NCBI GenBank assembly: GCA_964453045.1
Contig: CAYVNR010000006.1
Coordinates: 83,747-147,746 of the forward strand
Direction: 5' to 3'
Source of the DNA: an uncultured Flavobacteriaceae bacterium
GTDB taxonomy: Bacteria > Bacteroidota > Bacteroidia > Flavobacteriales > Flavobacteriaceae
DNA length: 64,000 nt
The translations under genes and the position numbers were made by a program. A model generated the notes under the pieces. The model had not been told where the DNA came from. It saw nothing but the letters and a program-made list of their open reading frames with translations, and searched no databases. This document shows, one piece after another, positions 21,763-44,033 of the stretch. Every line of letters starts with the position of its first letter. Position 1 is the stretch's first letter.

Positions 21763-21828
21763 GTTTTCAGTGTTTTACATCTAAGTTACTTCATTTATAG
21801 GTTAGTTAAAAGTTAAAATTGGTAATAT

Positions 21829-24864: not shown

Positions 24865-24870
24865 ACCCCA

Positions 24871-25413: not shown

Positions 25414-25417
25414 AACT

Positions 25418-25879
25418 CTATTTTTTAATAAATAATTTTGACCAACTTTTTTCTTCGCTCTTGAGATGTAATAAATAGACTCCATTTGAAAGTTTACCTA
25501 CGTCTATTACAACTTCACTATTCTCAATACTTGTACTATAGCTTTCCATGGTTCGTCCATTGACGTCATATATTGTAATCTTAACATCTTGAGTGCTAAA
25601 GTCAGAAGGAAGCTTAATGTTTAAACAATTTTCTGTTGGGTTTGGATAAACCGTAATAACATCTTTTAGTGTTTCTTCATCTATGCTGAGTGTCTCGATA
25701 TTCAACTGCGTGCGGTTACCTAAATTATCATACACATAGTTATGTGTCGAACCATCATTAAAAACAACCTGAACCAAACGGTTCAAGTTATCGTAAGAGT
25801 ATGTTGTCGTCTCTTGTTGGATTTGGGCATTTGCTGAAAAACAAATAAATAATAATAAATACGTTATTTTTATTCTCAT
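25418..25879 (-). CDS. Small YD-repeat + T9SS type A CTD protein
   Basis: Signal peptide, YSYDNLNRL...YVYDNLGNR, then YPNPT...LSNGVYLLHL...KLFIKK CTD; start moved to MRIKI. Confidence 0.85.
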   Translation of the reverse strand: MRIKITYLLLFICFSANAQIQQETTTYSYDNLNRLVQVVFNDGSTHNYVYDNLGNRTQLNIETLSIDEETLKDVITVYPNPTENCLNIKLPSDFSTQDVKITIYDVNGRTMESYSTSIENSEVVIDVGKLSNGVYLLHLKSEEKSWSKLFIKK

Positions 25880-25883
25880 AAGT

Positions 25884-26228
25884 TTATGATTTATATGAAC
25901 CAAGACACTTTTTTGCATGATTCGTTATTCTTATCCAATTTTGATCCTCAAGTATATCACTATCAGATTTATACTTATTCTCAGCTAAATATTTTGAAAG
26001 TATGATATCTAAATGAGATAGATCTTCATATAATTCCTTACCAATATTTTCTTTTTCTTTTTTTAAAAAAAAATCAAAACAAAAATCGTCATACAAAAAA
26101 GCTATATCCTCATCAAATGAAGAAACAGTTTCACTATTTTTAACTAACCAACTCTTCTTTTGTTTATCTATATTTGCTATATTTTTTATAGACCAATAGA
26201 TATTGTAATACCAATTTAATTTGTTCAT
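25884..26228 (-). CDS. Probable immunity protein of Rhs toxin 1
   Basis: 114 aa, very AT-rich, begins 11 bp after the Rhs stop. Confidence 0.7.
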   Translation of the reverse strand: MNKLNWYYNIYWSIKNIANIDKQKKSWLVKNSETVSSFDEDIAFLYDDFCFDFFLKKEKENIGKELYEDLSHLDIILSKYLAENKYKSDSDILEDQNWIRITNHAKKCLGSYKS

Positions 26229-26239
26229 AATTCTTTTAG

Positions 26240-29200
26240 TTAAAAGTCATTAATTGGGATATGCGCTTCAGGGACATTACCACTTGGCAAAGGATTTCCA
26301 TTAATATCCACAAAAACACCATCAACACTACGCTTCATATATGCATTCCTTTGGTAAGAATTCGGTGAGTTTGGGTTGCCTGGCATCAATCTAATATGGT
26401 TTCCTGTAGGATTATTAGGATCAAAGTACTTAACACCATTACCTTTTTTTGTTGGTCTTGATATCCAACCATTAGGGATTAAGCCCCCTACTTTTTTTCC
26501 GTATTTCCCTACTGTAGCACCCCAACCAAAAATAGGAATCATAGCTGCACTACTCAAAGCAGCATTTAAACCATCACCTTTTATTGCATATAATATAGCA
26601 TTATATCCGTCAGCAAATTCTCCAATACCTGGAACTAAGCCTAATATATCAGCACCGATATGATAAACATCAACAGTAGTTTCAAGTACAGGAATAACTC
26701 TATTGTCAATAAATTCATCTGACAACTTTCCTCTTGGATCAAACCTACTGATTGGATTATTATCCGCGTAAGGATATAAATTAGTATGCCAAATAGGGTC
26801 TTCAGACAAGAACCTGCCAATTGATGGCTTGTAGTAACGAGCTCGCATGTAGTATAAATCATCTGTTTCATACTCTACGCCATAGATGCCTACATATCGA
26901 AATCGGTTAGTATCGTTTTCAGGTTCTAAAGCTCTAGTCACCTTTCCAAAATCATCATAGCGGTATTGGTGCGTTATGTTACCCAACTCATCTGTCATCA
27001 TAACCGTACTTCCCCTTATATCACCATGGTAGTAGTGCAAATCCCCATCGGGTTGCATTCTCGCAAGAACCATTCCATTGGAACTGTATATATAATATTT
27101 TTTAGTGTTGTTATTGCTATCCAATTCAACGAGTATATTATCCAATCTTACATCTCTAACATACTTTGTAGTTTCTCCATTTCTGACTGACTCTACACGT
27201 TGATTGTACGGATTATAATCAAAATTAAAAGTATTGTCAACATCTGTACAACTCGCTAATCGATCATCAATATCAAAGGTATAAGATACTTCAGAGCCTT
27301 CGCTAATGGTGTTGCCATCATCATCCAAGTCGTAATTCACACCACCAGCGAAGGTAATTTGATTATTATCATCATAGCTGTATGAGACGTTAGTGGAATT
27401 AGTAGAGTTTCCAGGATTAAAGCCTGGTGGAATCGGAGAAAACCATTCATAGGTTTGAGTTATATTTCCACGACTATCAAATTCATGGTGACTTGTATAT
27501 AATGCAGAATTGTCACTTAGATCTTCATGCTGTATAAAATCTAATCTGCCAGCATCATCGTATTCATAGTTAATGCGTATGCCATTACCTAAATCGATCC
27601 ACCTGACCCTGTCGTCATCATGATATTCGTATTCAGCTATAGTGGTATCACCGCTTCCGACATTTCGGTTGAGGGTTATTAACCATATCCTGTTTTTATT
27701 ATCATACTGATAATCCACCTCTACATCTATTCCGTTTATACTCGGATACAACAACTCCTCAACTTGACTGGTATCTGTATAGTCGTACTCTACATCAAAA
27801 CCATGTACCGTAGTTACTCTCTCTAATTGATTTAGATTATCATAATCAAACTCCATTGTTCCATAATCATTGGTAATATCTTCAACAAGGTTTCTGTCAT
27901 TATAGTCGATATAAGTTATTGTCCCTGTTTCCTCCAATCGTCCATCATTATCATATTCGTAATCAATGTCCAAGCCTGATGGTTTGGTGATTTCTTCCAA
28001 ATACCCTTCGTCTCCATAGTCATATTGGGTTACCAGATTTCCAAACTGCTCCTCGATTACCCTGTCTTCATCATCGTAGGTAAATGACGTAGCAACATTA
28101 TTTGCGTTGATGATTTCAGTTAAGTTATCATTCTCGTCATAATCATACGCTGTTACAAAACCCCCAGAGTTTATCATTTGGGTAATGTTATCATTGTCGT
28201 CATATTGATATGAAGAAATAAGCCCATTGTCATCTCTTTCAAGGAGGCGATTTACTCCATCGTAAGTAAATGTACTGCTGATACTTTCAGGTGCATCCAT
28301 CGTGGCTACTGCACCATCATTTTCATATGTATAGTTTATGGTGATCCCGTCTTGATTCGTTTGGGATAACAGTTGACCATACGTATCATAAGTGAACAGT
28401 ATAGAATTATTGTAGGCATCTATAATCTCAATGAGATTCTCATCATTGTCGTAAACAAATTCAGTAATATTACCCTCTGGGTCAATATATTCCACAAGAT
28501 TATTATCGTTGTCATATTCAAATTCTTCAACCACATCTCCATTTTCTTTATCAATTCTAGTAATATTTCCATCACTATCATATTCATATTCAACATAGAC
28601 TCCGTTTAAGTTTGCATCAGTTGGACGTAAAACGTTGACCCCTGAAGAAGGATAATTGACTACAATCTCGTCCGTATCGCTTGAATAATTCGTAACCAAT
28701 CCCTTATCATTGAACGTATAGTTTTCATGAAACATCCCACCACTTGGTAATGGTGTTTGTACTCCGGAAGTCAGAGCATTATTTTCAAAATCAAACTCAA
28801 CATTGACTTCGATAGGATCATCACCATCAATCTGGTATTGGCGTAGTTTTCCATTGTTGTCGTACTCAGCTTCAATTTGATTCCCCCTAGGAAGATCAAT
28901 TCGGAACAGCAAGTATTGTCCATAGCTGCTATCTTGATAGTATTGGTAAACCGTTAGATTGTCCTTTGCATCTTCAAAGCTTATCAAAATTGGGTAGTCG
29001 AAAGCTGAGCCTGAAGAGGTTCCCGAATATTCAAAACGTATATCCCTGTCAATAGGATCCTCAATTTTATCAACAAGATCAGTGCCATCTAGATATTCAA
29101 ATTCTAATCGTTTCCCAGATGGTGCAATGACTTCTTCAATACGTCTAGTATCGTCCTCTTCTGCACTTTCATATTCTATGTTGATTTCGTTACCATTGGG

Positions 29201-30226
29201 ATCCTCAATCTCAACGAGATAAAAAATATCTCTAGCGTTATCCAATTGCTCAAATCGATAACGTACCTGGTTCTTTTTAGTAATGTCAATCTCGTCCCCT
29301 TCAGAATCATCAAAGTTATCATAGACACCCAAGGTTTCGTATTCGTTTTCATCTTCGTTATATATATCAATTGTTCCATCTGGCCAAATGATGTAGTAAT
29401 AGCTAACAGAATCTTCACCGACATTGTTCTTTCTGACGATGTAGGCATTATAGGTATGTGACCAACCTCTTCCAAGCGGTTGGATAGAGTAAAAAGATTG
29501 GGGCATTTCCACCATTTGTGTGCTGTAGAAATGAGAAAAGTTTAAGTTCATTTTTCTGTCAGGAATCACAAAGCTGTTCTTTGCGTAATGGTTGAACACA
29601 CCCTGTTCGATCCCTCTGGAAAAGCCCAATGTATCGTATGCATACGTTCCTATTGTGAAGTAATTGTCAATATCCAATAACTCATTTTGAGTTGGGGCGG
29701 TTACATTGGCTTCAAGAAAATTGATGTAATCTGAAGTACCGCTAAAAGAAAGTCCTGACTCTGGTTGCAGTTGAGATGTATTTGGAAGCATTCCCAAAAC
29801 ATAGGCAGTGACTATGTGGTCATAATAGATGGTATTTTGGTTCACGTCACTATATGGTTCAGAACCATTGGTTATCAAGGGTACGTTAAACGCCTCGATT
29901 AGTGTTTTGATGATACTGGCATGAAACGGAATTTGGCCTATATCAAAATTTGGATCTTCTCTCCTCAATACGGAAATGCCATCTTGAAATTCAAGATAGC
30001 TCAATAACCTAGCCTTTTTGCTAAAGTCCGAATCATCATCCATATCCACAAAAATATTTGGGAAAGATGCTGCTGGATAATCATCAGGATCGGCACCGTT
30101 ACCATATATAGAGTTGAATATAGCATTTGTCAGTTCAAACTTTGTGGTTTGGGAATGTATTTGGTTACCAATAAAAAGGTAGCACAAAAACAATAGGTAT
30201 AGATGGTAATTTTTTTTCACGATCAA
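26240..30226 (-). CDS. Rhs/YD-repeat polymorphic toxin 1 (SLH-like region, PT-TG-like pre-toxin, Ntox30-like tip)
   Basis: Signal peptide, many YD repeats, RYYKPSIGRFLSEDP...PISRFDPRG core, DILGLVPGIGEFADG pre-toxin motif, C-terminal RLMPGNPNSP...EAHIP. Confidence 0.9.
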   Translation of the reverse strand: MIVKKNYHLYLLFLCYLFIGNQIHSQTTKFELTNAIFNSIYGNGADPDDYPAASFPNIFVDMDDDSDFSKKARLLSYLEFQDGISVLRREDPNFDIGQIPFHASIIKTLIEAFNVPLITNGSEPYSDVNQNTIYYDHIVTAYVLGMLPNTSQLQPESGLSFSGTSDYINFLEANVTAPTQNELLDIDNYFTIGTYAYDTLGFSRGIEQGVFNHYAKNSFVIPDRKMNLNFSHFYSTQMVEMPQSFYSIQPLGRGWSHTYNAYIVRKNNVGEDSVSYYYIIWPDGTIDIYNEDENEYETLGVYDNFDDSEGDEIDITKKNQVRYRFEQLDNARDIFYLVEIEDPNGNEINIEYESAEEDDTRRIEEVIAPSGKRLEFEYLDGTDLVDKIEDPIDRDIRFEYSGTSSGSAFDYPILISFEDAKDNLTVYQYYQDSSYGQYLLFRIDLPRGNQIEAEYDNNGKLRQYQIDGDDPIEVNVEFDFENNALTSGVQTPLPSGGMFHENYTFNDKGLVTNYSSDTDEIVVNYPSSGVNVLRPTDANLNGVYVEYEYDSDGNITRIDKENGDVVEEFEYDNDNNLVEYIDPEGNITEFVYDNDENLIEIIDAYNNSILFTYDTYGQLLSQTNQDGITINYTYENDGAVATMDAPESISSTFTYDGVNRLLERDDNGLISSYQYDDNDNITQMINSGGFVTAYDYDENDNLTEIINANNVATSFTYDDEDRVIEEQFGNLVTQYDYGDEGYLEEITKPSGLDIDYEYDNDGRLEETGTITYIDYNDRNLVEDITNDYGTMEFDYDNLNQLERVTTVHGFDVEYDYTDTSQVEELLYPSINGIDVEVDYQYDNKNRIWLITLNRNVGSGDTTIAEYEYHDDDRVRWIDLGNGIRINYEYDDAGRLDFIQHEDLSDNSALYTSHHEFDSRGNITQTYEWFSPIPPGFNPGNSTNSTNVSYSYDDNNQITFAGGVNYDLDDDGNTISEGSEVSYTFDIDDRLASCTDVDNTFNFDYNPYNQRVESVRNGETTKYVRDVRLDNILVELDSNNNTKKYYIYSSNGMVLARMQPDGDLHYYHGDIRGSTVMMTDELGNITHQYRYDDFGKVTRALEPENDTNRFRYVGIYGVEYETDDLYYMRARYYKPSIGRFLSEDPIWHTNLYPYADNNPISRFDPRGKLSDEFIDNRVIPVLETTVDVYHIGADILGLVPGIGEFADGYNAILYAIKGDGLNAALSSAAMIPIFGWGATVGKYGKKVGGLIPNGWISRPTKKGNGVKYFDPNNPTGNHIRLMPGNPNSPNSYQRNAYMKRSVDGVFVDINGNPLPSGNVPEAHIPINDF

Positions 30227-30319
30227 CTTGATTTAATGTTAATTTCTGAATCAATATTAGAAAAAAATGATGCTGATGTGAGTGTATATTTAGCTGTTTT
30301 TTAGTATAAAAGTACATTA

Positions 30320-30335
30320 TTACCCCTAGGGGTAA
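30320..30335. promoter_or_regulatory. Perfect 16-bp palindrome upstream of Rhs 1
   Basis: TTACCCCTAGGGGTAA, 94 bp upstream of the Rhs 1 start. Confidence 0.55.
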
Positions 30336-30371
30336 CATCCCCACTAAGAAAGTTCATACGAAATGGGGACA

Positions 30372-32078
30372 CTACTCCTTTGAAAGTGTTTTTTGGAATG
30401 TCAAAAACTCTTTTTGATATATGGAAACCGAGACAAGCTTATCAATTCTATCCAAACTGTTGTCATAAGCTTTGAGCTTTTTATATAGTTTGTTGCGTCG
30501 TTTTTTTATGGCGCCTTCTGTAACCGACTTTAGTTTTTCCGCAATCTCAGCCTCTGAAAACCCTTGGGATTGCATAGTCCAAAACTCAATTAAACTATCT
30601 GTTAAGTTGTACTTCTGCTTTAATTTGGCATTGAACCGCTCCCTATAATTTTGCCCAAGACTCGGTTCACGAATGCTGAAAACCTCTTTTTGAGATTCTT
30701 TAAGTGTATCTATAATGTGAATAAGCTCACTCTCCCTTCTTCTTTTTTTGTTCATGAAAAGAAGATAGGCAAACAATAGAACCAGAGCAAAAACCGAAAG
30801 TGCCAAAATAACATAGAGACGTTTCCGATTGTTCACACGCTGTTCACTGATAATATCATCCTTTTCGTTGAGTTCATATTTTATCCTGATGAAATCTTCT
30901 TTGTAGCGTCTATCCACGAGATCCAAGCTATCTCTTACGGCAATATACTCTTTGAATTTATCTTTTATTCTGTTATCAGGGTAAAGCTCGGCCATAAATT
31001 CCAATGACACGAGATAATCTCGGTACTTCTTGGTCTTGTGTGCAATTCGTTCAGCCCGTTCTATGTATGCCACAGATGTGTCAATGCTAATATCCTTATA
31101 GTATTCTGCTAGATGAATGTAACTCATGATGATACCGTGATCATCAGATTCTCGTTCTCGAATATTAAGTGCCTGCTCAAGGTTGGTTAACACACTATCT
31201 AATCGGTTGGTTCTAAAATGGGCATGGGCCATGTTGTCTATCAACGCTGCTTTGGTTTCTGGATAAGAGCTCAAAATACTGTCATTTTCAGAAAGCCCTA
31301 AATTAAAGTACCTTATGGCTTTTTGATAGTTTTGAGCGTCCTTGTACGACTTACCGATATTGTTCAACGACTGAATAGCATAAATTGGTTTATCCTTAAT
31401 TTCTATACGCAATCTGTATGCCTTTTCATGGTATTCTATTGCTTTATCATAGTTTTTCAGATTATTGTATATAATCCCCAAATTGTTATAAACAGAGGAT
31501 ATACGCCTTGTGTTTTTTGTATTCTTTAAGAAATCCAATGCTCTGAAGGAAGAAATTTCGGCACCTGAATAATCATGCACATTTTTCTGGAGGATGGCAG
31601 TATTGAGCATTATTTTTCCTGCGCTCAGTGAATCACCGATGGCTTCATAGAGTTTAAAGCTCTTGTAATAATAATAAAACGTACTATCGACTGCATGGTG
31701 CCTTTTGTAGAATGCCGACTTGTACTCAAGAACCTTGGCAACAGATGCCGTATCAAATCTGCGCTGAGAAAATTCTAAACGTTGTTGAGCATACTTTTGA
31801 AAGTTTAGTGAATCTTTAGATTTATAATGCAGGTTTACAAATTTTTTAAGTGCAAAACCCATCAGGGAATCATCATGAAACTGTTTTGCATACAGGTACA
31901 GTTTATGGTTGCTTATTATCCTGTGCCGCAAGTCCAATTTAGAATTGTTGACTCTTTGTACAAGATTATGTATTGAGTCAATCTCTCGTACGCTTCCCTC
32001 ATTTTGTGAAAGAAGATTTGAAAAAGGGCTAATTAAAATAAAAAGGAAAATTAAACTAGACCTCATACGTAAATACAC
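30372..32078 (-). CDS. TPR-TM-HTH (LuxR-like) one-component regulator
   Basis: Signal-like N-terminus, TPR repeats (YNNLGIIYNNLKNYDKAIEYH), TM segment LYVILALSVFALVLLFAYLLF, C-terminal GFSEAEIAEKL..VTEGAIKKRRNKLYKKL. Confidence 0.82.
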   Translation of the reverse strand: MYLRMRSSLIFLFILISPFSNLLSQNEGSVREIDSIHNLVQRVNNSKLDLRHRIISNHKLYLYAKQFHDDSLMGFALKKFVNLHYKSKDSLNFQKYAQQRLEFSQRRFDTASVAKVLEYKSAFYKRHHAVDSTFYYYYKSFKLYEAIGDSLSAGKIMLNTAILQKNVHDYSGAEISSFRALDFLKNTKNTRRISSVYNNLGIIYNNLKNYDKAIEYHEKAYRLRIEIKDKPIYAIQSLNNIGKSYKDAQNYQKAIRYFNLGLSENDSILSSYPETKAALIDNMAHAHFRTNRLDSVLTNLEQALNIRERESDDHGIIMSYIHLAEYYKDISIDTSVAYIERAERIAHKTKKYRDYLVSLEFMAELYPDNRIKDKFKEYIAVRDSLDLVDRRYKEDFIRIKYELNEKDDIISEQRVNNRKRLYVILALSVFALVLLFAYLLFMNKKRRRESELIHIIDTLKESQKEVFSIREPSLGQNYRERFNAKLKQKYNLTDSLIEFWTMQSQGFSEAEIAEKLKSVTEGAIKKRRNKLYKKLKAYDNSLDRIDKLVSVSIYQKEFLTFQKTLSKE

Positions 32079-32134
32079 GATTTTATCTTGTTGGTAGTCT
32101 CAAATATAAAAAATATTGTAGCTTTATAAAGTAA

Positions 32135-32162
32135 AAATCCCTGACGAATCAGGGATTTAAAT
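32135..32162 (-). terminator. Intrinsic terminator after the small peptide gene
   Basis: Minus strand AAATCCCTGA-TTCG-TCAGGGATTT followed by a T-run. Confidence 0.7.
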
Positions 32163-32176
32163 TTGAGGATGATTAG

Positions 32177-32326
32177 TTATTGATCCTCATCTGGTTCAGC
32201 GGGATCATCCACCTCATCTCCACCTGTCGCATACGTTGGAGTTTCGATGTGATCATCGTCTGGACTACATGACATTATTCCCATTGTAAAGCACATAAGA
32301 ATAATGAAGATTCCTTTTTTAATCAT
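32177..32326 (-). CDS. Small lipoprotein-type peptide (49 aa, absent from ORF track)
   Basis: MIKKGIFIILMCFTMGIMSC-SPDDDHIETPTYATGGDEVDDPAEPDEDQ*: basic N-terminus, hydrophobic core, lipobox-like Cys20, acidic tail, own terminator. Confidence 0.72.
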   Translation of the reverse strand: MIKKGIFIILMCFTMGIMSCSPDDDHIETPTYATGGDEVDDPAEPDEDQ

Positions 32327-32460
32327 AGTAATCAGATTTAAATCTGATCCGGATCAATTTGGATCGCCTTCCAAACTAGGCGTGTTAAACAATAACTTGT
32401 CCAAGTTCATTTAGATATCTGATACAAAGAAGGGCAAAAGAATAAAGGGTATTGCAAAAC

Positions 32461-32495
32461 ATTCCGGAAGATTCCGAAAGGTTCCAGAATGTTCC
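32461..32495. repeat. Four helically phased RTTCC repeats
   Basis: ATTCCGGAAG ATTCCGAAAG GTTCCAGAAT GTTCC with a 10-bp period, in the divergent promoter region. Confidence 0.55.
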
Positions 32496-32527
32496 ATTTT
32501 CAACTATAAAATTCAAATATTACAGGT

Positions 32528-33775
32528 ATGAATAAGGGTTTTAAAGAGCTTTATGAGTTATATAATCAAGCTAAATCCAATGCTCTGTTAATAACTTTAG
32601 ATAATCCGACAACGGGAAACATAAAGAAGTGTTTGATAGATGCTGTTAACGATAATGAATTATCAGAAAAACACAAAAAGGCTATCTTTTATTTTTTGTC
32701 TGACCCTCATAAAGCAAACCATCTGGATAAATTGACTAATCTGGATCTCATTCAACTGATTTTAGAAAGTAAATTAGACGTATACAGACCCATATCAGGT
32801 TTTTTTAAGGGCAAGCCAAAGAAAATAGACAAGCATGGTGGGCGTACCATCCTTAATCTAATTCTAGAATCAGATTTAAAGAAAACCGCAGAACCTCATT
32901 TAAAAGAAAGTGTAGTGCAAAATCAACCATCAGAAAAAGAAGATAAAGCTTTTGCTGAAAAGAGCCGCGATTCTGGTAAGTTTTACATCACAGTTACTGG
33001 AACTGTTGTTGCCCTTGGGTTGGTCCTGTTCTTTACATACTTGGCAATAAATAAAAATGATAGTTCAACAAAAGCGGACACCAATAATTATCATATTGAA
33101 AACTACGTGGTTTCACAGAAGGATAGAATACCCGAAAACCAATTGATCGATCATTTCAGTTATCAGGACAAACCAGAACTTTGGTATATCTCATACAAGG
33201 GACAAACAGAATTCTATTCAAAACCAGGCATTCATAAAATAACTAAAAGACCCCTTAAGCCTGTTAGCAAAGAAATAATCTCGGCATATAAAGATCAAAG
33301 TGATGCAAATAACCCTAAAACAAAAATTGAAGAAGGCAAACATAGAAGCCCTGTCGACGATAACTCAACGGTTAAAGAATTAGCTGTCATCATTTTTAAT
33401 AATGAAAGTAAATTGGATATTGAAGCCCAAAATCATTTAAAGAAACTCCTTAAAAATGATTACACCTTTAGGGCGATTGATTACTTGAGCAATGGTTTGT
33501 CAGCCCAAATTGTTGACCAGATAAAGTCATTCAATTTTAATTCTCTTGATATTAATGAGGGTGAATCAGAGTTTATTCTTATTGGAGAAATTGATTATAG
33601 CTTCTCGCAAAGCGATATTCAGAAAGATATGACAGTATGTAGACTATCTCTAAACTACTCAATTATTTCTTACAATAATAAAAAAGAAATGGACAGTAAT
33701 TCCATATCAGTATCGGGAATCGGATTTTCAGAATCCAATGCAAAACAAAACACCATTAAAAAAATCACATTATGA
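32528..33775 (+). CDS. Single-pass membrane hypothetical protein
   Basis: Cytoplasmic N-terminus, TM at about residues 155-175, periplasmic WY...EFY...GIH..T.RPLKP motif. Confidence 0.7.
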   Translation: MNKGFKELYELYNQAKSNALLITLDNPTTGNIKKCLIDAVNDNELSEKHKKAIFYFLSDPHKANHLDKLTNLDLIQLILESKLDVYRPISGFFKGKPKKIDKHGGRTILNLILESDLKKTAEPHLKESVVQNQPSEKEDKAFAEKSRDSGKFYITVTGTVVALGLVLFFTYLAINKNDSSTKADTNNYHIENYVVSQKDRIPENQLIDHFSYQDKPELWYISYKGQTEFYSKPGIHKITKRPLKPVSKEIISAYKDQSDANNPKTKIEEGKHRSPVDDNSTVKELAVIIFNNESKLDIEAQNHLKKLLKNDYTFRAIDYLSNGLSAQIVDQIKSFNFNSLDINEGESEFILIGEIDYSFSQSDIQKDMTVCRLSLNYSIISYNNKKEMDSNSISVSGIGFSESNAKQNTIKKITL

Positions 33776-34695
33776 AGACACAGTTTCTACCTCTACTGCT
33801 GTTAATTACAGTAACCATAAATGCTAACCTTTTTGCCCAAAGTGACTATTCCGATTTTGATAGAAAAATGATTTCATTGGCTGAAGAAGTAGCAAACCGC
33901 ATTCAGTCTAAAAATAAAATAAAAGTAGCCCTTGGGGATTTTACCGATAGCTTTAAAGAAAAAAACACTCTCGGAGACTATATAGCTGATGACTTTTCCA
34001 TTCACTTTACCAATGCAAGTGACAATCTCGAGGTAACCGATAGGCATAACTTAAAACAGTTAATGAAAGAGCACAAGTTAAATGCGGAAGGGTATATTGA
34101 CCCCAGCACCGCAAAACGAATAGGAATGTTAATTGCTGCCGATGCGATTGTAACGGGGACCGTGGATATTGGGTTACATTCTTTAAGGATTAGGATAAAG
34201 ATCATTGATACTGAAACGGGGCTGCACTTTGCCGCTGCCTTGAGGAATTTGCCCATCGATGAAAACATAAAGGTCATTTTGAAAGACGCGGGCTTTGAAA
34301 GCTCGGTTAAACCAGAGGGAAAGCGCATCAATACAAATGAGGAAAGTAACAATAAACGTACGACGAATAAAAAATGTGAATCTTTGAAAACTGGAGATTA
34401 TTATTTTGAAAACAAGTCCCAATATAGCTACCTCATAGATATTAAAAGTTCAATTAACAGTTATAAAAAGACCATTACCGTCAGCAAAGGCCAAACAACA
34501 GCTTTACAGGACCTACCCTCGGGAACCTATACGTTCAAAATGTATAAAAATAACCTACGAACCACAGCCGGGCCGACTCAACAAGGTAGTTTTAGACTAA
34601 AATCCTGCCAATCTATCACTTATTCTATCCTCAAATCAAAAGAGTATGATATAACCGACGATTTCTATAAAGCAGTAAAGAAAAAACGTAATTGA
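33772..34695 (+). CDS. FlgO/CsgG-like domain secreted protein
   Basis: Signal peptide; VALGDF...LEVTDRHNLKQLMKEHKL...AKRIGMLIAADAIVTGTV pattern. Confidence 0.68.
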   Translation: MKTQFLPLLLLITVTINANLFAQSDYSDFDRKMISLAEEVANRIQSKNKIKVALGDFTDSFKEKNTLGDYIADDFSIHFTNASDNLEVTDRHNLKQLMKEHKLNAEGYIDPSTAKRIGMLIAADAIVTGTVDIGLHSLRIRIKIIDTETGLHFAAALRNLPIDENIKVILKDAGFESSVKPEGKRINTNEESNNKRTTNKKCESLKTGDYYFENKSQYSYLIDIKSSINSYKKTITVSKGQTTALQDLPSGTYTFKMYKNNLRTTAGPTQQGSFRLKSCQSITYSILKSKEYDITDDFYKAVKKKRN

Positions 34696-34884
34696 CTTTT
34701 GTATTTATTCTACAATTACTTAAAATGAAAAACCTGATAACCAAATTTTATAATCTGTGTTAAATAATCATTAACTTAGATTTTTAACACCGTTTTCTTA
34801 AAAACTTTCTTACCTTGTGGGTAGTCTTAACCTTAAAGACTCTTAGTTAATTAATTCCTGTTTGACGAGAACTAAATTGAAATT

Positions 34885-34900
34885 CCCCTAGTGGGTTAAC
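34885..34900. promoter_or_regulatory. Motif related to the 30320 palindrome, upstream of the Rhs 2 operon
   Basis: CCCCTAGTGGGTTAAC versus CCCCTAGGGGTAAC. Confidence 0.4.
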
Positions 34901-34927
34901 TATATTAATCAATTTTGATAATTAACT

Positions 34928-36046
34928 ATGAATTACAAATCACTGTTTAGGTGCCTCTCCTATGCCCTCTGTTTGCTATGTGCAAATGTGTCAACTTCTC
35001 AAAATTTATTGGACACCTCTACTTGGACAGTCGGTCAAGGTAGTGTAAGTGGTTTTTCTGTTAATGGTAGTGCTTCGGAAAACATAAGAGAAAATGGCTT
35101 TAATCATATAGGTGAATCCGTAATACTCTGGAAAGCTGTTCCTGATTCTAACAGTAATGCTGATGGGGGCTGGAACTCAAATTACATATCCATTGACAAC
35201 TCCAAAACATACAGGCTATCGGTATGGATAAAAAAAACTAATTCAAACACAGGTTCCACATATTTTGGTCTAGCAAGTTATACTGGTGGATCTCAAGTAC
35301 TGAATCTCGATGGGACAACAAACTCCAATCCGTACTTTTGGTTTGGTGACTTACCGCAATTAGATAGATGGTATCTCCTAGTTGGTTTTGTACATGAAAA
35401 AAACTACATGTCAACAATAAGTGAGGGGAAAATTTATGATGGAGTTACAGGACTAACTGTTATGAATACGATTGACTTTAGATTCAGTAATAACGCTACA
35501 AATTTGAGACACAGAGCTTATCTTTACTGGGACACTAACACACAAGACAGGCAGTATTTTTGGGAGCCAAGAATTGACTTGATTGATGGAAGTGAACCAA
35601 CCATTGAAGAATTATTGAAAATAAATCCCGATTCAAAACTATTATTCTCCCATGATAATGCTGGAAATCAAAAACAACGTTTTTATTGTGATTCCCCAGG
35701 ATGCCCCGTGCCAAATCCCCCAGCTGGTCGTCCTGCTCCTAATAGCACAAATGAATTAGCAGGGGTCGAAAATCAAGAAATCGATGATGCCATTAAAGAC
35801 AAAATCAAAATTTCCCCTAACCCTACTAATGGAAAATTTATTATCAGTCTATTGAGGGATGATCAAGTTATGGAAAATCAAGTTGTAATTTATGACACTA
35901 ATGGGGCCTTGTTGAGGAAAGTAAAAATTAGTGAATCCTCTAGTAAGCTAGAATTAGATATAAGTGACAAGCCCTCTGGTGTGTACTTTGTCCATGTACA
36001 CTTCTCAAATGGCACTTCATCAACAAAAAAAATAATTAAAAATTAA
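34928..36046 (+). CDS. T9SS type A CTD protein with a YD-like repeat
   Basis: Signal peptide, beta-sandwich-like domain, FSHDNAGNQKQR, then ISPNPT...PSGVYFVHV...KKIIKN CTD. Confidence 0.85.
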   Translation: MNYKSLFRCLSYALCLLCANVSTSQNLLDTSTWTVGQGSVSGFSVNGSASENIRENGFNHIGESVILWKAVPDSNSNADGGWNSNYISIDNSKTYRLSVWIKKTNSNTGSTYFGLASYTGGSQVLNLDGTTNSNPYFWFGDLPQLDRWYLLVGFVHEKNYMSTISEGKIYDGVTGLTVMNTIDFRFSNNATNLRHRAYLYWDTNTQDRQYFWEPRIDLIDGSEPTIEELLKINPDSKLLFSHDNAGNQKQRFYCDSPGCPVPNPPAGRPAPNSTNELAGVENQEIDDAIKDKIKISPNPTNGKFIISLLRDDQVMENQVVIYDTNGALLRKVKISESSSKLELDISDKPSGVYFVHVHFSNGTSSTKKIIKN

Positions 36047-36050
36047 TTCA

Positions 36051-39000
36051 ATGATCATTACTAGATATATAACCGCTATTTTCTGCACTTTAACTCTTGG
36101 CCTCTTTTTAAATAGTCAAGAGAATAAAGAAACTTTTCAATCAGCTAGTCAAAATTTCACCTCAAAGCCAATAATAAGTAACAATAGAAGTATAAAAAAG
36201 GGGGCTGAATCTTCAAAAATCAAGCCCTCTGCATCACAAAAGTCATCTTCTGAAGTAGGCACAACTCCAGCAAGTTTTGATGTGTCTCTTTCTGGTTCAG
36301 CCATCTATAATATTCCCATATATGGCCCCCCAGGTATAAAAGATGTGATGCCACAAATCAGCCTAAGCTATAATAGTCAAGCATCAAATGGTCTTGCTGG
36401 TTGGGGATGGTCAATATCTGGTTTGTCATCAATAAGAAAAGTTTCCTCAACGAAATTTCATGATGGATTTATAGATGGTGTTGATTTTGATTCGGACGAT
36501 CGTTTCTCTTTGGATGGCCAAAGACTATTATTAAAATCTGGCAATTATGGAGAAAATGACTCCGAATATCAAACTGAAACATATTCAAATATTAAAATAA
36601 AAGCCATAGGAACTTCACCACATGGCGCAGGATATGGCCCAAATTCTTTTCAAGTTTTTTATCCTGATGGCAGGATATCCTATTATGGTCAATCCATTTA
36701 TTCCGATACAAGAATGGAATGGGCTCTTACCAAAACAGTTGACCCACAACAAAACTTCATAGAATACAAGTATTCGATATCAGGTAATTTATTGAGAATT
36801 GAAGAGATAAAATATGGTGCACATTCTTTTAGTACAAGTGCGCCCAATACAATTAAGTTTTATTACAAAGATAGAACTAGACCTGAAGTATCATATGTAG
36901 AAGGAATAACATTCAAAAGAACTAAAATTCTTGACAGAATTGAGACTTATGGACTAGGTAAATTGTTCAGGAAGTATGTTCTAAGTCACGATCAAACATC
37001 TTTGGATTACGACATACTGACATCAGTTACAGAGTACAATAAACTAAATGAAAACCTAACACCGATAGTCTTTAATTATGATAGCTCACCTGTAAATCCC
37101 AATCCAGGCACATATACATCTTCCATTAGTCCAATTTACGATTATCAAAATGATGTTATTCTATCTGGCGAGTTTAGTGGTGATGGAAAACTTGACTTTA
37201 TTATCTATGATGAAAATGTGAGAAATAATTTAAATGTATTCGATAATATCAATTCTACATCTTCCAATATAGGAACAAGCATCAATGTCTCAAAATTTGA
37301 TGACATAATTTCAAACGATATGCTTGATGCAAGTGGAAAGAAGATTGCTAAGCAGGGTCTCACTATGATAGAAGAAAATATGGCAGGAGGTGTATCCACG
37401 GTCAGTTTTAAGAGTTACTATTATAATGGTTCAGGGTTAAATCACGAATATACTAAGCAATGGGATGCCCCAACGAATCCTTTTGAGACGTCTTGTTCGT
37501 CTACAGTGCAAAAAATTATTCCAAAAGAATATCTATCAGGCGATTTCAATGGTGATGGTTTAACAGATGTATTGGCAATAGGGAAACCACACGACCAGCA
37601 ATATTGCTTTGAAATATTAGGCTGTACTGGTAAAAATTGTTGCTTTTGTGACCCCTTGGGCAACTTTCCGTACAAATATGTTCATTTTATAGACCTAAAT
37701 AGAAACCTGACCAGCAATTTTGCATATGGATCAGGTAATCTTTTACAAACTTTAAGTGATAGCGATAGATTATTAGCTGCTGACTTTAACGGAGATGGAA
37801 AAACAGACTTATTTCATTTTAAGGATGGAAGAGTTGATATTTATGGATTAGACAGCAATAATCAGCTGTTTCTTATCCATACAGAAACAGACAGTTTCAT
37901 TGAGTTGGATCGTCCTATTTTATTAGGAGATTACAATGGCGATGGGAAAGTAGAATTTATAACACCTACTGTTGATAGTAGTGAAGATTGGCGTTTTTTT
38001 ATCTCAAGAGGTAATTCAATAGAAAAATATACAAAGTTTGTTCCCGATTTTAACTACAAAGAAGCTGAAACTGGTCTTTTTTCTTTTAGTGAAGATCCAG
38101 GATGGGGCGGAAGATATGCTTTAGTAGAAAGCAGGTATGCCGCCCAAGATATGAACGGTGATGGCAAAACAGATTTAATAAAAAATATTATTGCAACCTC
38201 AAATAGTACCTCACCATATCGCACAGACGAAATTGTAAGAGTTTTTACTAACCATTATGATAATGCAGATGGCAGACCAAAGTTTCTAAATCCCACTCTT
38301 TTTTACGAAGCAAACACTGATGTATCTAGATATGGCACCCCCATTTTCTTGGAAAGTAATTTTGGATCTTCCAATTTTGATTACGTATACTTAAGTGAGG
38401 GACAGATTACTGCTTATGAATTTAGTCCCGATCATCAAAAAGATGTGACACTATTACAAATAAATAACAATGGAATAATCCACGATATAGAGTATTACGA
38501 TTTGGATGATAGTAACCAAATTTACTCTGGCAATAATCAAGAAGCATATCCCTATGTAAATATTAATTATGCCCCAAACATGAAGCTTGTTGGACAGGTC
38601 AGAGAATCTGTTGGTGGATATGAACGATTTCAAGACTTTAGATACACTGGAGCCGTTTCAAATTATGAAGGGTTAGGTTTTCAAGGGTTTAAACAGATTA
38701 AGAGGACAAATATATATGGAACTGATGTTCAAAGAATCTGGAGTATTACTGATTATGATATTCAAAAAAGAGGGGCCACTACCAGAAGTTGGACATCTTT
38801 AATGGAGTCAAGTACACCAAATGCCATTATAAGTAGAACGGACAATACATATACAACACAGTTGTTGCCAAACAAGGTTTTTGTTAATGTTAAAGCATCG
38901 TCTAGCTCTCAAGACGGACTGACCGGAGTTAACACCTCTCAATCATTTACTTACGATACATATTATAATCCCACAAATATAACATCAACCTATCCAGGTG

Positions 39001-42000
39001 GCTCAGAGGTCGTCATTCAACAATTCGTAAACAATCCGACCCCGTTTAATTCTACCTATACGATTGGAAGATTAAATGATGTTACTACAACAAAAACACT
39101 GAATGGTGAGACCTTTAGTTCTCAAACTAAATACATTTTCAATAATAACTTAACTATAGAAACACACACAAAAGGTAATGGCACACCATGGCTAATAAAA
39201 AAGTATTTTTATGATGCCTTTGGAAACATCATAGAAAAGAGAACTACTGGAAGTGGTATTTCCGACAGATTAGAATCTTATGAATACGACAGTTCAGGAA
39301 GGTTTATGGAAAAATCAATCGATACCGAAAATTTGGAAACAACTTATAGCTATAATTACGAAACAGGTAACCCCATAAGGGTAACAAGTGCTTATGGCTT
39401 AACGATTGACTATACCTATGACGACTGGGGAAGAGTTATTATAGAAACAGATTATTTGGGTAAGGATACTGTCATTACATACGCAAACGATACATCATAT
39501 GGCTCAGGAGGCTCAATGAAAATGATCAATTATGATCAGGGCGAAGATGAAAAAGTATATTTTAATGCTTTAGGTTGGACTATGGAGGAAAGTATCTTAT
39601 CCCTGAATAATAACTGGATAAACAAAAAATACGAGTACGATAGTTCAGGAAAAACATTAAGAGAGAGCGAACCCTACTTTAGTGGCTCATCACCTACACA
39701 ATGGAACGTATTTGGTTATGATGAATATGGTCGAACAATCACTCAACAACTATTTACGGGGAAGATTATTTCAACAACATACAATGGCTTGTCAGCTACT
39801 GTAAATGATGGGGTCAAGACTGTTACGACAACCAAGGATGCCCTGGGGAATATTGTTACCTTACAAGATGACGGAGGTACCATTACCTATACATATTTTG
39901 CTAACAACGAGATGAAATCTGCCAACTATGACGGAAATATAGTCAATGTTGGTATAGACGGCTGGGGGAGAAAAATTGCCTTAAGCGACCCATCAGCTGG
40001 CAATTATTCATATGAATATAATTTACTTGGTGAAATAACAAAAGAGAGAACCCCGAAAGGAGAGACCACCTATACCTATAGCTCTATAGGAAAATTAATT
40101 TCCAAATCAATTACAGGTGACAATACTGATGTTGTTACCGATTATGAATACGATCCCAGCACAAAGCTTTTAAGTGAAATCACAGCAACTGATAACAAAA
40201 ACAATATTGATTATTATTACACTTATAATTACGACTCGTATGGGCGTTTGGATAAGATTACTGAAAATAATGGGTCTGCATTCTTTGAGAAAACAAATTT
40301 GTATGACACATATGGAAGGGTTTATAGAGAAATATATAGCTCTGAAAACAGTCTGACAGGAGTTTCAAATATAGTTCAGATAAAAAATATATATGACAAT
40401 GCAGGGATTTTAACGAGTATTGAGGATTTTACATCAGGAAATAGGCTGTGGCATATTCTTTCAGAAAATGCACGAGGACAAGCTTTAGATATTAGTTTAG
40501 GGAATAATCTCAACAAAACCAAACAGTACGATCAGTATGGCTTTCTCACAGAAATTAAAGATTATAAGATAGGGACATCAGTAACAGCACTGAGGATAAC
40601 CTATAGCTTTAACGCACAGAGAGGTATATTAAACAGTAGGCAGAATTTTGGGTTCACTAATTGGAGTGAAGTGTTTACTCACGATGACCAAGACAGGCTT
40701 ACCCAAATAAACGGAGCAGTAAATCATCAACAAGATTATGATCTCAAAGGTAGAATAACGGATAATTCCTTTGTTGGGGAATATAATTATAGTAGTTCAG
40801 CCGCCTATCAACTTGAGGATATTGATTTAAACAATCAGGGAGACCTTTATTATCAACAAAATAAGTTGCAACAGATTACGTACAATGCATTTAAAAAACC
40901 TGTTGAAATCTATCAAGAGGATAAAGAAAGGGTAAGTTTTTATTACGGTCCTTTCAATAACAGGACTCAAGCATTTTACGGTGATCTCAATACTGATATT
41001 GCAGACAGGCACTACCACAAACAATACTCCAGTATTATACCCGTAGAAATGATACATGACAGAAAACTCGGCACTAATAAAATAGTTACCTATATTGGTG
41101 GAGATGCCTATTCTGCTCCAATAGCATACATTTTTGAAGAAAAGAATAACGAAACACTCATTGACCAATACCATTATCTTCATCGTGATTACTTGGGAAG
41201 TATATTGGCTATTACAGATTCAAGTACAACTATTGTTGAACAACGCCAATTTGGTGCCTGGGGCATTACGGATAAGTTTATTGACAAAAATGGAAATACT
41301 ACGTTTTCTTATGATTCTTTAATTGGGAGAGGATTTACAGGCCATGAACATTTCTTTGACGTGTCGTTGATACATATGAACGGTCGTATGTATGATGCTC
41401 AGTTAGGTAAATTCTTGTCCCCAGATAATTTTGTACAAGACCCATACAATACGCAGAGTTTTAACCGTTATAGTTATGTATGGAACAATCCATTATCCTA
41501 CAACGATATAAGTGGAGAATGGTTCTGGGCAGCTGCATTGGTAGGAGCAGTTTTTGGTGCTCTTGCAGGTGCTTCAGCATATATTGGACAGGCAATACAA
41601 ACTGGTGATTGGAACATTGAGAGTTTTAGCCTCGCTGTTTTAGGGGGAGCCATAGTCGGCGGTATAACGGGAGGCTTTGCAAGTTATGCCTCCTGTATGT
41701 CCATAGGAAATATTGCGTCTGCTCTAGCTGGAGGTATCGTTGGTGCGTTTTTACCTTCATTTAATATCCCAATTGGGGATTGGAATATCAGTGTTTCTGC
41801 CACTGTAGCATTTGGCAATTCTTTTGGAATAGGGAGTAGCTTGAGTGTAGGGTATAGTGATGGAAATTGGAATTTTTCTGCTGGTATAGGTCATACAAGT
41901 TATGGCAACTTCAATGGTTTTGGTAATGGTATTGAATTGAGAAAATCCATTTTGGCTGCTTTTGATGATGGGAAGACAGGATTTACATATGGCACTAATT

Positions 42001-42542
42001 TCTGGACGGGAAAAAATGGAATGAAAGGTTTTAAGCAGCAAACAGGAATAGTAGGTGTAAGAATTGGAGATTTTAATATAAGATATGAAAATGATGGTTC
42101 TATTGGCCCAGCTGGTGACGGTGGAGATAGCTTTAGAAGTGCTTCTTTGCAATTATCAATAAATGATTATTCTATGGGCTTTCAGTTATTTACTGGTTAT
42201 AGAAATCTAGACGAGGAAAAGCTGACACCAGAGGGCTACAAAGGTACACCAGGCACTAATCTCAAAGACTCTTTTGGAAGGAATTTACCAAATGGAGCTG
42301 TATTGGAAGAAGGGGAACCATATCGATTGGGAGCTTTAAGTTTTGGATATAAAGGTTACAGAATCGGAGTTAATTCTGAAAAGGTTAGACATGCAATACA
42401 AAATCATGCAGTGCATAATTTCAGACTAAAAGTTTTTGGTGTCACTTTAATAGACAAAAGACAAAGAGGGTTTGAAAATCAGTCCTGGGATGTCAAACAA
42501 TATTTTGAATATAAAACTAATAATAACTATACATCATGGTAA
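36051..42542 (+). CDS. Rhs polymorphic toxin 2 (SpvB/TcB-like N-terminus, FG-GAP repeats, Ntox23-like tip)
   Basis: Signal peptide, LSLSYNSQ...GWGWSI, GDFNGDG repeats, HMNGRMYD...RYSYVWNNPLSYNDISG core, tip with YENDG / DSFR / RHAIQN. Confidence 0.9.
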   Translation: MIITRYITAIFCTLTLGLFLNSQENKETFQSASQNFTSKPIISNNRSIKKGAESSKIKPSASQKSSSEVGTTPASFDVSLSGSAIYNIPIYGPPGIKDVMPQISLSYNSQASNGLAGWGWSISGLSSIRKVSSTKFHDGFIDGVDFDSDDRFSLDGQRLLLKSGNYGENDSEYQTETYSNIKIKAIGTSPHGAGYGPNSFQVFYPDGRISYYGQSIYSDTRMEWALTKTVDPQQNFIEYKYSISGNLLRIEEIKYGAHSFSTSAPNTIKFYYKDRTRPEVSYVEGITFKRTKILDRIETYGLGKLFRKYVLSHDQTSLDYDILTSVTEYNKLNENLTPIVFNYDSSPVNPNPGTYTSSISPIYDYQNDVILSGEFSGDGKLDFIIYDENVRNNLNVFDNINSTSSNIGTSINVSKFDDIISNDMLDASGKKIAKQGLTMIEENMAGGVSTVSFKSYYYNGSGLNHEYTKQWDAPTNPFETSCSSTVQKIIPKEYLSGDFNGDGLTDVLAIGKPHDQQYCFEILGCTGKNCCFCDPLGNFPYKYVHFIDLNRNLTSNFAYGSGNLLQTLSDSDRLLAADFNGDGKTDLFHFKDGRVDIYGLDSNNQLFLIHTETDSFIELDRPILLGDYNGDGKVEFITPTVDSSEDWRFFISRGNSIEKYTKFVPDFNYKEAETGLFSFSEDPGWGGRYALVESRYAAQDMNGDGKTDLIKNIIATSNSTSPYRTDEIVRVFTNHYDNADGRPKFLNPTLFYEANTDVSRYGTPIFLESNFGSSNFDYVYLSEGQITAYEFSPDHQKDVTLLQINNNGIIHDIEYYDLDDSNQIYSGNNQEAYPYVNINYAPNMKLVGQVRESVGGYERFQDFRYTGAVSNYEGLGFQGFKQIKRTNIYGTDVQRIWSITDYDIQKRGATTRSWTSLMESSTPNAIISRTDNTYTTQLLPNKVFVNVKASSSSQDGLTGVNTSQSFTYDTYYNPTNITSTYPGGSEVVIQQFVNNPTPFNSTYTIGRLNDVTTTKTLNGETFSSQTKYIFNNNLTIETHTKGNGTPWLIKKYFYDAFGNIIEKRTTGSGISDRLESYEYDSSGRFMEKSIDTENLETTYSYNYETGNPIRVTSAYGLTIDYTYDDWGRVIIETDYLGKDTVITYANDTSYGSGGSMKMINYDQGEDEKVYFNALGWTMEESILSLNNNWINKKYEYDSSGKTLRESEPYFSGSSPTQWNVFGYDEYGRTITQQLFTGKIISTTYNGLSATVNDGVKTVTTTKDALGNIVTLQDDGGTITYTYFANNEMKSANYDGNIVNVGIDGWGRKIALSDPSAGNYSYEYNLLGEITKERTPKGETTYTYSSIGKLISKSITGDNTDVVTDYEYDPSTKLLSEITATDNKNNIDYYYTYNYDSYGRLDKITENNGSAFFEKTNLYDTYGRVYREIYSSENSLTGVSNIVQIKNIYDNAGILTSIEDFTSGNRLWHILSENARGQALDISLGNNLNKTKQYDQYGFLTEIKDYKIGTSVTALRITYSFNAQRGILNSRQNFGFTNWSEVFTHDDQDRLTQINGAVNHQQDYDLKGRITDNSFVGEYNYSSSAAYQLEDIDLNNQGDLYYQQNKLQQITYNAFKKPVEIYQEDKERVSFYYGPFNNRTQAFYGDLNTDIADRHYHKQYSSIIPVEMIHDRKLGTNKIVTYIGGDAYSAPIAYIFEEKNNETLIDQYHYLHRDYLGSILAITDSSTTIVEQRQFGAWGITDKFIDKNGNTTFSYDSLIGRGFTGHEHFFDVSLIHMNGRMYDAQLGKFLSPDNFVQDPYNTQSFNRYSYVWNNPLSYNDISGEWFWAAALVGAVFGALAGASAYIGQAIQTGDWNIESFSLAVLGGAIVGGITGGFASYASCMSIGNIASALAGGIVGAFLPSFNIPIGDWNISVSATVAFGNSFGIGSSLSVGYSDGNWNFSAGIGHTSYGNFNGFGNGIELRKSILAAFDDGKTGFTYGTNFWTGKNGMKGFKQQTGIVGVRIGDFNIRYENDGSIGPAGDGGDSFRSASLQLSINDYSMGFQLFTGYRNLDEEKLTPEGYKGTPGTNLKDSFGRNLPNGAVLEEGEPYRLGALSFGYKGYRIGVNSEKVRHAIQNHAVHNFRLKVFGVTLIDKRQRGFENQSWDVKQYFEYKTNNNYTSW

Positions 42543-43225: not shown

Positions 43226-43229
43226 TTTT

Positions 43230-44006: not shown

Positions 44007-44033
44007 TAAACAGTATATCTCAACTCCATTATT

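Follow-up and report, generated by a model that had tools for sequence, protein, structure and literature searches.

Two Rhs toxin genes and the small genes that accompany them were analyzed in a 64,000-nucleotide stretch of DNA, here called the window, from an uncultured Flavobacteriaceae bacterium (contig CAYVNR010000006.1, positions 83,747 to 147,746). Each small gene, small1 (25418..25879, minus strand) and small2 (34928..36046, plus strand), encodes a protein in which a YD-type repeat hairpin is combined with a type A C-terminal domain (CTD), the sorting domain of the secretion system of type IX (T9SS). Judged from their sequences, both small proteins are members of an extensive Bacteroidota family without a name, in which a YD hairpin is coupled to a type A CTD and whose members appear to be partners dedicated to Sec-exported Rhs toxins lacking a CTD. 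The data establish that the partnership is both dedicated and ancient: the conserved passenger is a hairpin of the repeat type that builds the Rhs shell, and the opposite end is a T9SS sorting domain. We consider it probable that the small protein is a trans-acting export or anchor subunit for the Rhs protein. The genome that holds the window (G000; 3.6 Mb, 50 contigs) contains exactly two Rhs-core genes, and both lie within the window, on opposite strands and about 6 kb apart. The two gene orders and the two Rhs classes thus stand side by side in one genome: Rhs1, of the non-SpvB class, has a two-repeat partner, and the partner of Rhs2 bears a fused head resembling family 4 carbohydrate-binding modules (CBM4).

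Rhs1 (26240..30226, minus strand; 1328 aa) consists of a signal-peptide-like N-terminus, an N-terminal region without a family match, a YD shell, an Rhs core and a tip of about 160 aa that likewise matched no family. Its N-terminus, MIVKKNYHLYLLFLCYLFIGNQIHSQ, was judged by eye to have the look of a signal peptide, and family searches detected RHS repeats (PF05593, 8e-27) and the Rhs core (TIGR03696, 58.3 bits; cut-off, 32.5). In Rhs2 (36051..42542, plus strand; 2163 aa), a signal-peptide-like N-terminus (MIITRYITAIFCTLTLGLFLNSQ, also by eye) is followed by SpvB (4.6e-7), an FG-GAP propeller (2e-11), a YD shell (RHS_repeat), an Rhs core (TIGR03696, 46.7 bits; cut-off, 32.5) and an Ntox23 tip (PF15528, 1e-28). 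Searches for a T9SS sorting domain gave nothing in Rhs1 (PF18962 and TIGR04183) and no CTD in Rhs2. A preliminary description of this DNA had stated that both Rhs proteins carry Sec signal peptides and lack a CTD, and this was borne out by the family searches and by inspection. It had also placed Rhs1 in an SLH/DUF6531-like type; the SLH assignment is unsupported, no such domain being found in a Pfam-type family search, and DUF6531 scored 19 bits, under the threshold of 24.1. Because neither Rhs protein matched PAAR in the family search, both have signal-peptide-like N-termini and a search for TssC detected none in G000, Rhs1 and Rhs2 are not regarded as effectors of the secretion system of type VI (T6SS). 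Their Sec-type N-termini should bring both proteins to the periplasm, where T9SS would be the only evident route across the outer membrane. G000 encodes SprA (TIGR04189, 2776 bits) and has 72 type A CTD matches.

The small1 protein (153 aa) is made up of a signal peptide (25823-25879), two YD repeats (25700-25810; TTTYSYDNLNRLVQVVFNDGSTHNYVYDNLGNRTQLN), a 16-residue linker (25652-25699) and a type A CTD (25421-25651). Alignment with 30 homologues placed its true start at 25879, 4 nt after the putative Rhs1 immunity gene. The repeats matched RHS_repeat (1.8e-5) and TIGR01643 (20.8 bits; cut-off, 15.8), and the CTD matched Por_Secre_tail (1.8e-17), PF18962 (63.8 bits; cut-off, 27) and TIGR04183 (48.8 bits; cut-off, 23). 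In small2 (372 aa), a signal peptide (34928-34999) precedes a CBM4-like jelly-roll domain of about 210 residues (35000-35632), a YD hairpin (35633-35689; SKLLFSHDNAGNQKQRFYC), a proline-rich linker (35690-35803) and a type A CTD (35804-36043; Por_Secre_tail, 2.5e-14; PF18962, 53.8 bits; TIGR04183, 47.5 bits), and the stop codon lies 4 nt before the Rhs2 ATG. Pfam called no YD repeat in small2; its repeat was recognized by a motif, L-x-F-x-[YH]-D-x-[AS]-G-[NS]-Q-x-x-R-x-Y-C, which separates the N-domain from the linker and has the local form FSHDNAGNQKQR; D243, G246 and C254 were invariant in 22 homologues. The signal peptides were judged without a predictor, from hydrophobic N-termini that end in ...SANAQ (small1) and ...ANVSTSQ (small2) and are conserved among homologues. 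Both proteins follow one plan, in which a signal peptide precedes one or two YD hairpins that a linker joins to a type A CTD, and each shares its operon with an Rhs protein that lacks a CTD and has a signal-peptide-like N-terminus; small2 is atypical of these mini-proteins in having a 210-aa domain ahead of the hairpin. The earlier account of a small gene with these elements at each locus was accordingly correct in its elements; the word "short" does not do justice to small2, in which some 210 residues form a separate domain.

A co-occurrence survey, which the preliminary description had proposed, found the two partners together in 36 of 37 small2-type loci, at 51 of 51 SpvB-Rhs genes and in 6 of 6 small1 contexts. 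As that description had argued, the pairing is not a chance one, the small genes being conserved operon partners across Flavobacteriales and beyond. By size, the homologues of small2 formed one class near 372 aa and another near 590 aa, every member having a CTD, and in three contexts from different genera a small2-type gene lay 8-110 bp 5′ of a gene for a 2095-2172-aa SpvB/FG-GAP/Rhs protein, with unrelated outer flanks. A scan with small2, using one genome per species, returned 79 loci, 38 of which carried a gene with the N-domain, the hairpin and the CTD. Thirty-seven of these could be evaluated, and in all but one an SpvB/FG-GAP/Rhs gene (2050-2280 aa) started between -37 and +207 bp downstream. 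The other 41 loci contained paralogues in which the small2 N-domain is followed by a tail-fibre-like coiled-coil C-terminus, with neither hairpin nor CTD, and in none of them was an SpvB-type Rhs gene located directly downstream; the nearest Rhs-related open reading frames (ORFs) were 1 kb (L081) and 4.4 kb (L077) away. The paralogues without hairpin and CTD never adjoin an SpvB-type Rhs gene; it is the hairpin and the CTD, rather than the N-domain, that track Rhs.

The first 1000 residues of Rhs2, used as a query, identified the 51 SpvB-Rhs genes, which come from 38 of the 301 Flavobacteriales genomes and from 16 of 92 genera, and 15-20 kb was examined around each gene. Every one had a YD mini-protein in its operon, and the mini-protein carried a CTD in 49 cases (45 upstream and 4 downstream of Rhs). 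At 43 loci, the directly upstream partner was a protein of 145-190 aa (a few of 383-403 aa) composed of a signal peptide, the motif F-x-Y-D-x-A-G-N-Q..R..C..C, a linker and a type A CTD. One locus (L165) had a partner with a variant motif, and at another (L157) the partner was 1.8 kb upstream, separated from Rhs by a tail-fibre-like gene and an outer-membrane-like gene. The four downstream partners followed Rhs and a presumed immunity gene, which is the layout of small1. At the remaining two loci, both of one genome (G206), the partner was a 75-aa ORF that stops at the hairpin and has neither a signal peptide nor a CTD. Outside Flavobacteriales, a YD and CTD protein was found beside Rhs in 13 of 15 evaluable loci. 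No CTD in cis was detected in any of the 114 Rhs ORFs of at least 1000 aa in all the loci examined.

A search with small1 yielded 54 relatives of 117-166 aa, nearly all of about 153 aa, the closest 52 sharing 47-100% identity. In an alignment of 31 family members, the YD segment was nearly invariant (Y27, Y29, D30-L35, Y50, D51 and G54-R56 were fixed) and the CTD varied outside its usual motifs, the hairpin being the best-conserved part. Rhs was upstream of the small1-type gene in each of the six contexts with visible upstream DNA. Homologous Rhs genes were located 5′ of the small1 homologues in L001, L002, L003/4, L168 and L169, and the order tetratricopeptide repeat (TPR) protein, Rhs protein of about 1310-1360 aa, variable small ORF and small1 homologue was observed in L001, L002, L003/L004 and L169. 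As in the window, genes for a protein of about 200 aa, a DUF87/TrwB-type ATPase of about 1010 aa and a serine recombinase continue the cassette in L001, L003/L004 and L170; the L169 contig stops just past the ATPase, and in L002 the ATPase/recombinase module is not directly beside the pair. Among the 301 sampled Flavobacteriales genomes, the Rhs1-type N-terminus was confined to the window genome and G065. In the latter, the gene for a 1602-aa Rhs protein (31% identical) is separated by 210 bp from a downstream 150-aa gene (36% identical) whose product carries a signal peptide, a pair of YD repeats and a CTD, and this pair has no ATPase/recombinase module. Because the G065 and L002 pairs stand without the module, the link between Rhs and small1 is older and tighter than the surrounding mobile cassette. 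The small1 hairpins aligned with generic YD repeats of Rhs1; a special similarity to one particular Rhs repeat was considered and rejected, as the alignment had no privileged site.

The combination of the two elements in one protein was compared with its background in G000. A separate CTD profile built from the small1 and small2 families detected 67 ORFs with a CTD, three of which hold a YD-type motif, namely the two mini-proteins and one protein of 2138 aa with the motif deep inside; the motif occurred in 23 of 3476 ORFs of at least 100 aa. AlphaFold2 models were obtained for both small proteins. The model of small2 (mean predicted local distance difference test score [pLDDT] 78.6) contained a confident beta-sandwich at about residues 25-230 and a confident CTD; within residues 234-289, where pLDDT was below 50, short strands were predicted at 238-242 and 248-253. 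Foldseek matched the N-domain to the CBM4-2 chains 2y64_A and 3jxs_A (TM-score on target, 0.58) and to the porphyran-binding CBM 8xmz_A (TM-score, 0.60) at about 10-14% identity. The small1 model had four strands (26-59) with pLDDT of about 50 and a CTD of about 80-88. In both monomer models the hairpins were packed against nothing, which is consistent with a partner-dependent element and proves no more than that. A comparison with solved BC cocoons of Tc toxins, in search of an N-terminal hairpin missing from Rhs2, found no basis: phmmer against sequences of the Protein Data Bank returned no relative of Rhs2 residues 1-1000 at E <= 0.001.

The route of export was further addressed by G206 (99% complete), which has no SprA and no CTD match. 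Its two SpvB-Rhs genes (L129 and L141) encode the only Rhs proteins among the intact SpvB-Rhs genes that lack a signal-peptide-like N-terminus. This genome supports the view that the hairpin partner would belong with Rhs whatever the route, and that the signal peptide and the CTD would go with T9SS. Since G206 jointly lost the signal peptide of Rhs and the signal peptide and CTD of the partner, Rhs and partner may depend on the same route. SprA is present in G000, G134 and G065. Each Rhs gene of G206 is preceded by the 75-aa YD-only ORF and by a gene for a protein of 518-581 aa, the 518-aa one having a PKD match.

The most economical reading would be that the hairpin joins the Rhs sheet and that the CTD acts in trans for export, surface anchoring or both. 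Both proteins would cross the inner membrane by Sec. In the periplasm, the exposed YD hairpin (one for the SpvB-type Rhs2, two for Rhs1) would extend the Rhs shell's YD beta-sheet, much as TcB and TcC continue a single sheet across two chains. The CTD, on its flexible linker, would then be recognized by T9SS, and the complex would either cross the outer membrane or be anchored at the surface after the sortase has cleaved the CTD. With the CTD on a separate chain, the C-terminus of Rhs would therefore stay free for a self-cleaving, swappable toxin tip. From its fold, the CBM4-like jelly-roll of small2 may bind glycans on the surface of target cells or of the producer. A structural precedent for a hairpin from a separate chain exists in the BC complexes of Tc toxins, in which one YD sheet continues across two polypeptides. 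In this trans-adaptor model, which the preliminary description had put forward, the conserved pairing and the YD hairpin common to both small proteins stood, and the proposed mechanism is well motivated.

Several observations weigh against a trans-acting export subunit. A folded Rhs/BC-type cocoon is about as wide as the lumen of SprA (approximately 70 angstroms), and passage of a folded complex is not assured for this reason. In the literature we found no earlier case of a separate protein that supplies the T9SS sorting domain. In L036, the sole exception among the 37 small2-type loci, a small2-type gene has no adjoining Rhs gene. The two loci outside Flavobacteriales without a YD and CTD protein, L203 and L208 of G641, have proteins with a signal peptide and a YD hairpin (201 and 278 aa) directly 3′ of the Rhs genes; these carry other C-terminal domains with no recognizable type A CTD, though SprA is present. 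The co-loss with T9SS is confined to one genome and two loci, and six more genomes with atypical partners, inspected for a second T9SS-less case, all have SprA. Finally, the hairpin partner is retained in G206, and because it persists there without T9SS, its primary role may be structural and export secondary.

The alternative that best withstands these data, which we nevertheless consider unlikely, is that the mini-protein is only a surface tether or receptor: an ordinary T9SS cargo, perhaps anchored to lipopolysaccharide after CTD removal, that captures Rhs released by another route, such as outer-membrane vesicles or lysis, and positions the toxin without exporting it. A tether would account equally well for the CTD, the YD hairpin and the conservation of the pairing, the CBM-like head of small2 suits surface exposure, and a "YD repeat protein" was listed in the outer-membrane vesicle proteome of Riemerella (PMC11180376). 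However, no other route is evident for a periplasmic protein of about 150-240 kDa in a genome in which TssC is absent, and the joint loss of signal peptides and CTD in the T9SS-less G206 suggests a shared route.

Improbable, in our judgment, is a role purely as a structural subunit or chaperone, in which the hairpin would be a detached shell strand that the cocoon needs in order to fold, be sealed or remain stable and the CTD would be secondary, serving for example the disposal or display of free subunits. The YD-only partners of G206, the other C-terminal domains of the G641 partners and the conservation of the hairpin beyond that of the CTD in the small1 family are in its favor, but a linker bearing a complete type A CTD is kept by 49 of the 51 partners in Flavobacteriales, which argues for selection on the CTD. 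A structural role is in any case compatible with the trans-acting subunit that we favor, a structural strand that bears the sorting tag being the original model. We give little credence to a signaling or regulatory mini-cargo that would report T9SS status or regulate expression without binding Rhs. A regulatory role is known for the small CTD protein PorA (PMC7712824), and a gene for a TPR/transmembrane regulator-like protein lies 5′ of Rhs1-type genes; such a role nevertheless leaves unexplained why the sole conserved passenger is a YD hairpin of the partner's repeat type, why the genes are coupled at 4 nt and why hairpin-less paralogues never adjoin an SpvB-type Rhs gene. It is hardly credible that mobile Rhs cassettes simply carry the small genes along, without function, as conserved flanking DNA: the Rhs1 cassette does travel with an ATPase and a serine recombinase, but the pairing is kept amid wholly different flanks, at 31-36% identity without the mobile module, and in both gene orders with two unrelated Rhs classes.

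A bolder form of the trans-acting subunit hypothesis can be advanced only tentatively, and we doubt it more than we believe it. T9SS would move or mount a large protein without a sorting domain of its own, with a detachable strand of the cocoon carrying the CTD in trans and the hairpin, once the sortase has cleaved, tying the loaded cocoon covalently to the surface, which would make T9SS a contact-dependent antibacterial weapon. The CBM4-like head of small2 would add target recognition, a role that a separate tail-fibre-like protein may fill in other genomes.

Among the systems described so far, the closest is that of Apibacter, in which most SpvB/TcdB-type rhs genes adjoin genes for type A sorting-domain proteins and a link to T9SS was suggested (Steele & Moran 2021; PMC8125069). 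Like Rhs2, the Apibacter rhs products have an SpvB N-terminus, no PAAR and an adjoining type A CTD gene. The Apibacter study (PMC8125069) differs in that it reported adjacency only, without the YD hairpin, the mini-protein family, the downstream arrangement of the non-SpvB class or a mechanism. Given this adjacency, the trans-adaptor claim is less unprecedented than the preliminary description stated. We found in the literature no description of the YD hairpin, the mini-protein family, a trans-CTD mechanism or T9SS-dependent Rhs export. TANFOR toxins are, like Rhs1 and Rhs2, polymorphic toxins that bear a signal peptide and lack a CTD; their neighborhoods are enriched in CTD proteins, and they were hypothesized to be T9SS substrates (Jana, Salomon & Bosis 2020; PMC7073777). 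They differ in their TANFOR N-terminal domain and in their neighbors, which are large SprB/Fn3/PKD proteins, with no dedicated mini-partner or shared motif described (PMC7073777). The architecture of small1, in which a short passenger stands between a signal peptide and a type A CTD, is shared by PorA and by PGN_1817 (145 aa) of P. gingivalis ATCC 33277; PorA differs in acting in PorXY-SigP signaling, and PGN_1817 is a table entry as an uncharacterized CTD protein (PMC7712824).

The order of SpvB, FG-GAP propeller, YD shell and Rhs core in Rhs2 is that of the BC cocoon of Tc toxins. Unlike TcB-TcC, Rhs2 forms one fused chain that has a Sec-like signal, and its partner is a CTD protein of the 15-40-kDa type. 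No TcA-size ORF adjoins Rhs2, the neighboring genes encoding 372, 229, 283 and 1251 aa (adjoining genes only; no genome-wide search was made), and because of this Rhs2 was not filed as a Tc toxin. Co-encoded accessory proteins that couple a cargo to its machine are represented by the PorP/SprF-like partners of type B CTD cargo and by the Eag/DUF4123-type adaptors of T6SS Rhs effectors, and in Tat hitch-hiker co-export a signal-less protein rides on its partner. To our knowledge, the cargo in these cases has its own T9SS signal or another machine is used, and none of them supplies a T9SS CTD in trans.

The remaining genes of the Rhs1 cassette were assigned as follows. The putative Rhs1 immunity gene (25884..26228, minus strand; 114 aa), named from its position, begins 11 nt past the Rhs1 stop codon and has a weak SCO4402-family match (38 bits; cut-off, 50); ORFs in this position after Rhs1-type genes vary among loci (84-152 aa). 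The TPR protein (30372..32078, minus strand; TPR_12, 4e-20) has a signal-peptide-like N-terminus, one hydrophobic stretch of the membrane type and a basic C-terminal tail. Genes for TPR proteins of 500-582 aa hold the same place, directly upstream of Rhs1-type genes, in L001-L004 and L169, and the protein is possibly a regulator. Gapless after small1, the region 20278-25485 (minus strand) encodes a membrane protein of about 200 aa, a 1011-aa ATPase with DUF87, TrwB_AAD_bind and TraG-D_C matches, and a large serine recombinase. The ATPase gave a PADLOC mad8-like match (1.7e-21) and, by this match, resembles HerA/mad8-type proteins of defense systems or mobile elements. These three genes were rejected as core parts of the system, since they are not beside the pair in L002 or G065; they are probably a mobile-island or defense module that carries the Rhs1 cassette. 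Between the two Rhs loci (32528-34695, plus strand) lie genes for a 415-aa protein of no known family and a 307-aa FlgO/CsgG-like lipoprotein, and the same two genes also adjoin the small1-type cassette in L003/L004. Near that cassette (L003/L004, 1-671), a 785-aa FG-GAP/TcdB_toxin_midN protein with a weak Por_Secre_tail match in cis was observed, a TcB-like fragment that may carry its own CTD.

Downstream of Rhs2, a putative immunity ORF (42536..43225, plus strand; 229 aa), designated by position only, overlaps the Rhs2 stop codon by 7 nt and has a lipoprotein-signal-like N-terminus; it had no family match and no BLAST homologue in other Ntox23-tipped loci. Rhs tips and downstream ORFs differ between loci. 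Two genes 3′ of Rhs2, the 1251-aa protein (44034-47789, plus strand) carries a type B T9SS sorting domain (TIGR04131, 3e-32). In a Polaribacter metagenome-assembled genome (L027 and L028), the DNA 3′ of SpvB-Rhs genes contained orphan pieces of Rhs tips in a displaced-tip arrangement, namely Ntox23-like ones of 126-241 aa and a core fragment of 153 aa.

Tail-fibre-like proteins of 290-450 aa adjoin the adaptor/Rhs pair in about 20 loci (L121, L123, L125, L126, L128, L137, L144, L148-L154, L157, L163, L164, L199, L200 and L205). Their conserved C-terminus (..AKEVKV..WPDYVF..GHLPNIPSA..KLLEKIEELTLY.., together with a coiled coil) had no Pfam match, and a subfamily of tail-fibre-like proteins bears the same CBM4-like N-domain that is fused in small2. 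As a Rosetta-stone test for fusion this did not succeed: the tail-fibre-like genes upstream of many adaptors share only the C-terminal domain with the small2 paralogues and, by BLAST, not the small2 N-domain, which makes the fusion argument indirect. Outside the window, contig C10 of G000 (42804-45616) encodes a 789-aa signal-peptide-bearing protein of the pectate-lyase fold (PF12708, 1e-11) without a CTD, and 12 nt after this gene lies one for a 143-aa protein in which a short segment (..HFAYDLNNVLV..) joins a signal peptide to a type A CTD (2.8e-14). These two genes may be another split-CTD pair.

Whether T9SS has a role in interbacterial antagonism is a question that has been explicitly posed (PMC7073777, PMC8125069), and the analysis presented here addresses the exit route of Sec-exported Rhs and TcB/TcC-like toxins of Bacteroidota. 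To it the window adds both gene orders, both Rhs classes and a partner variant with a glycan-binding-type head. A trans-acting CTD partner, if true, would recruit T9SS substrates in a new manner, would provide a simple genetic handle in the form of a gene of about 150 aa, and would explain how a free, swappable toxin C-terminus can exist alongside a secretion system that uses a C-terminal signal.

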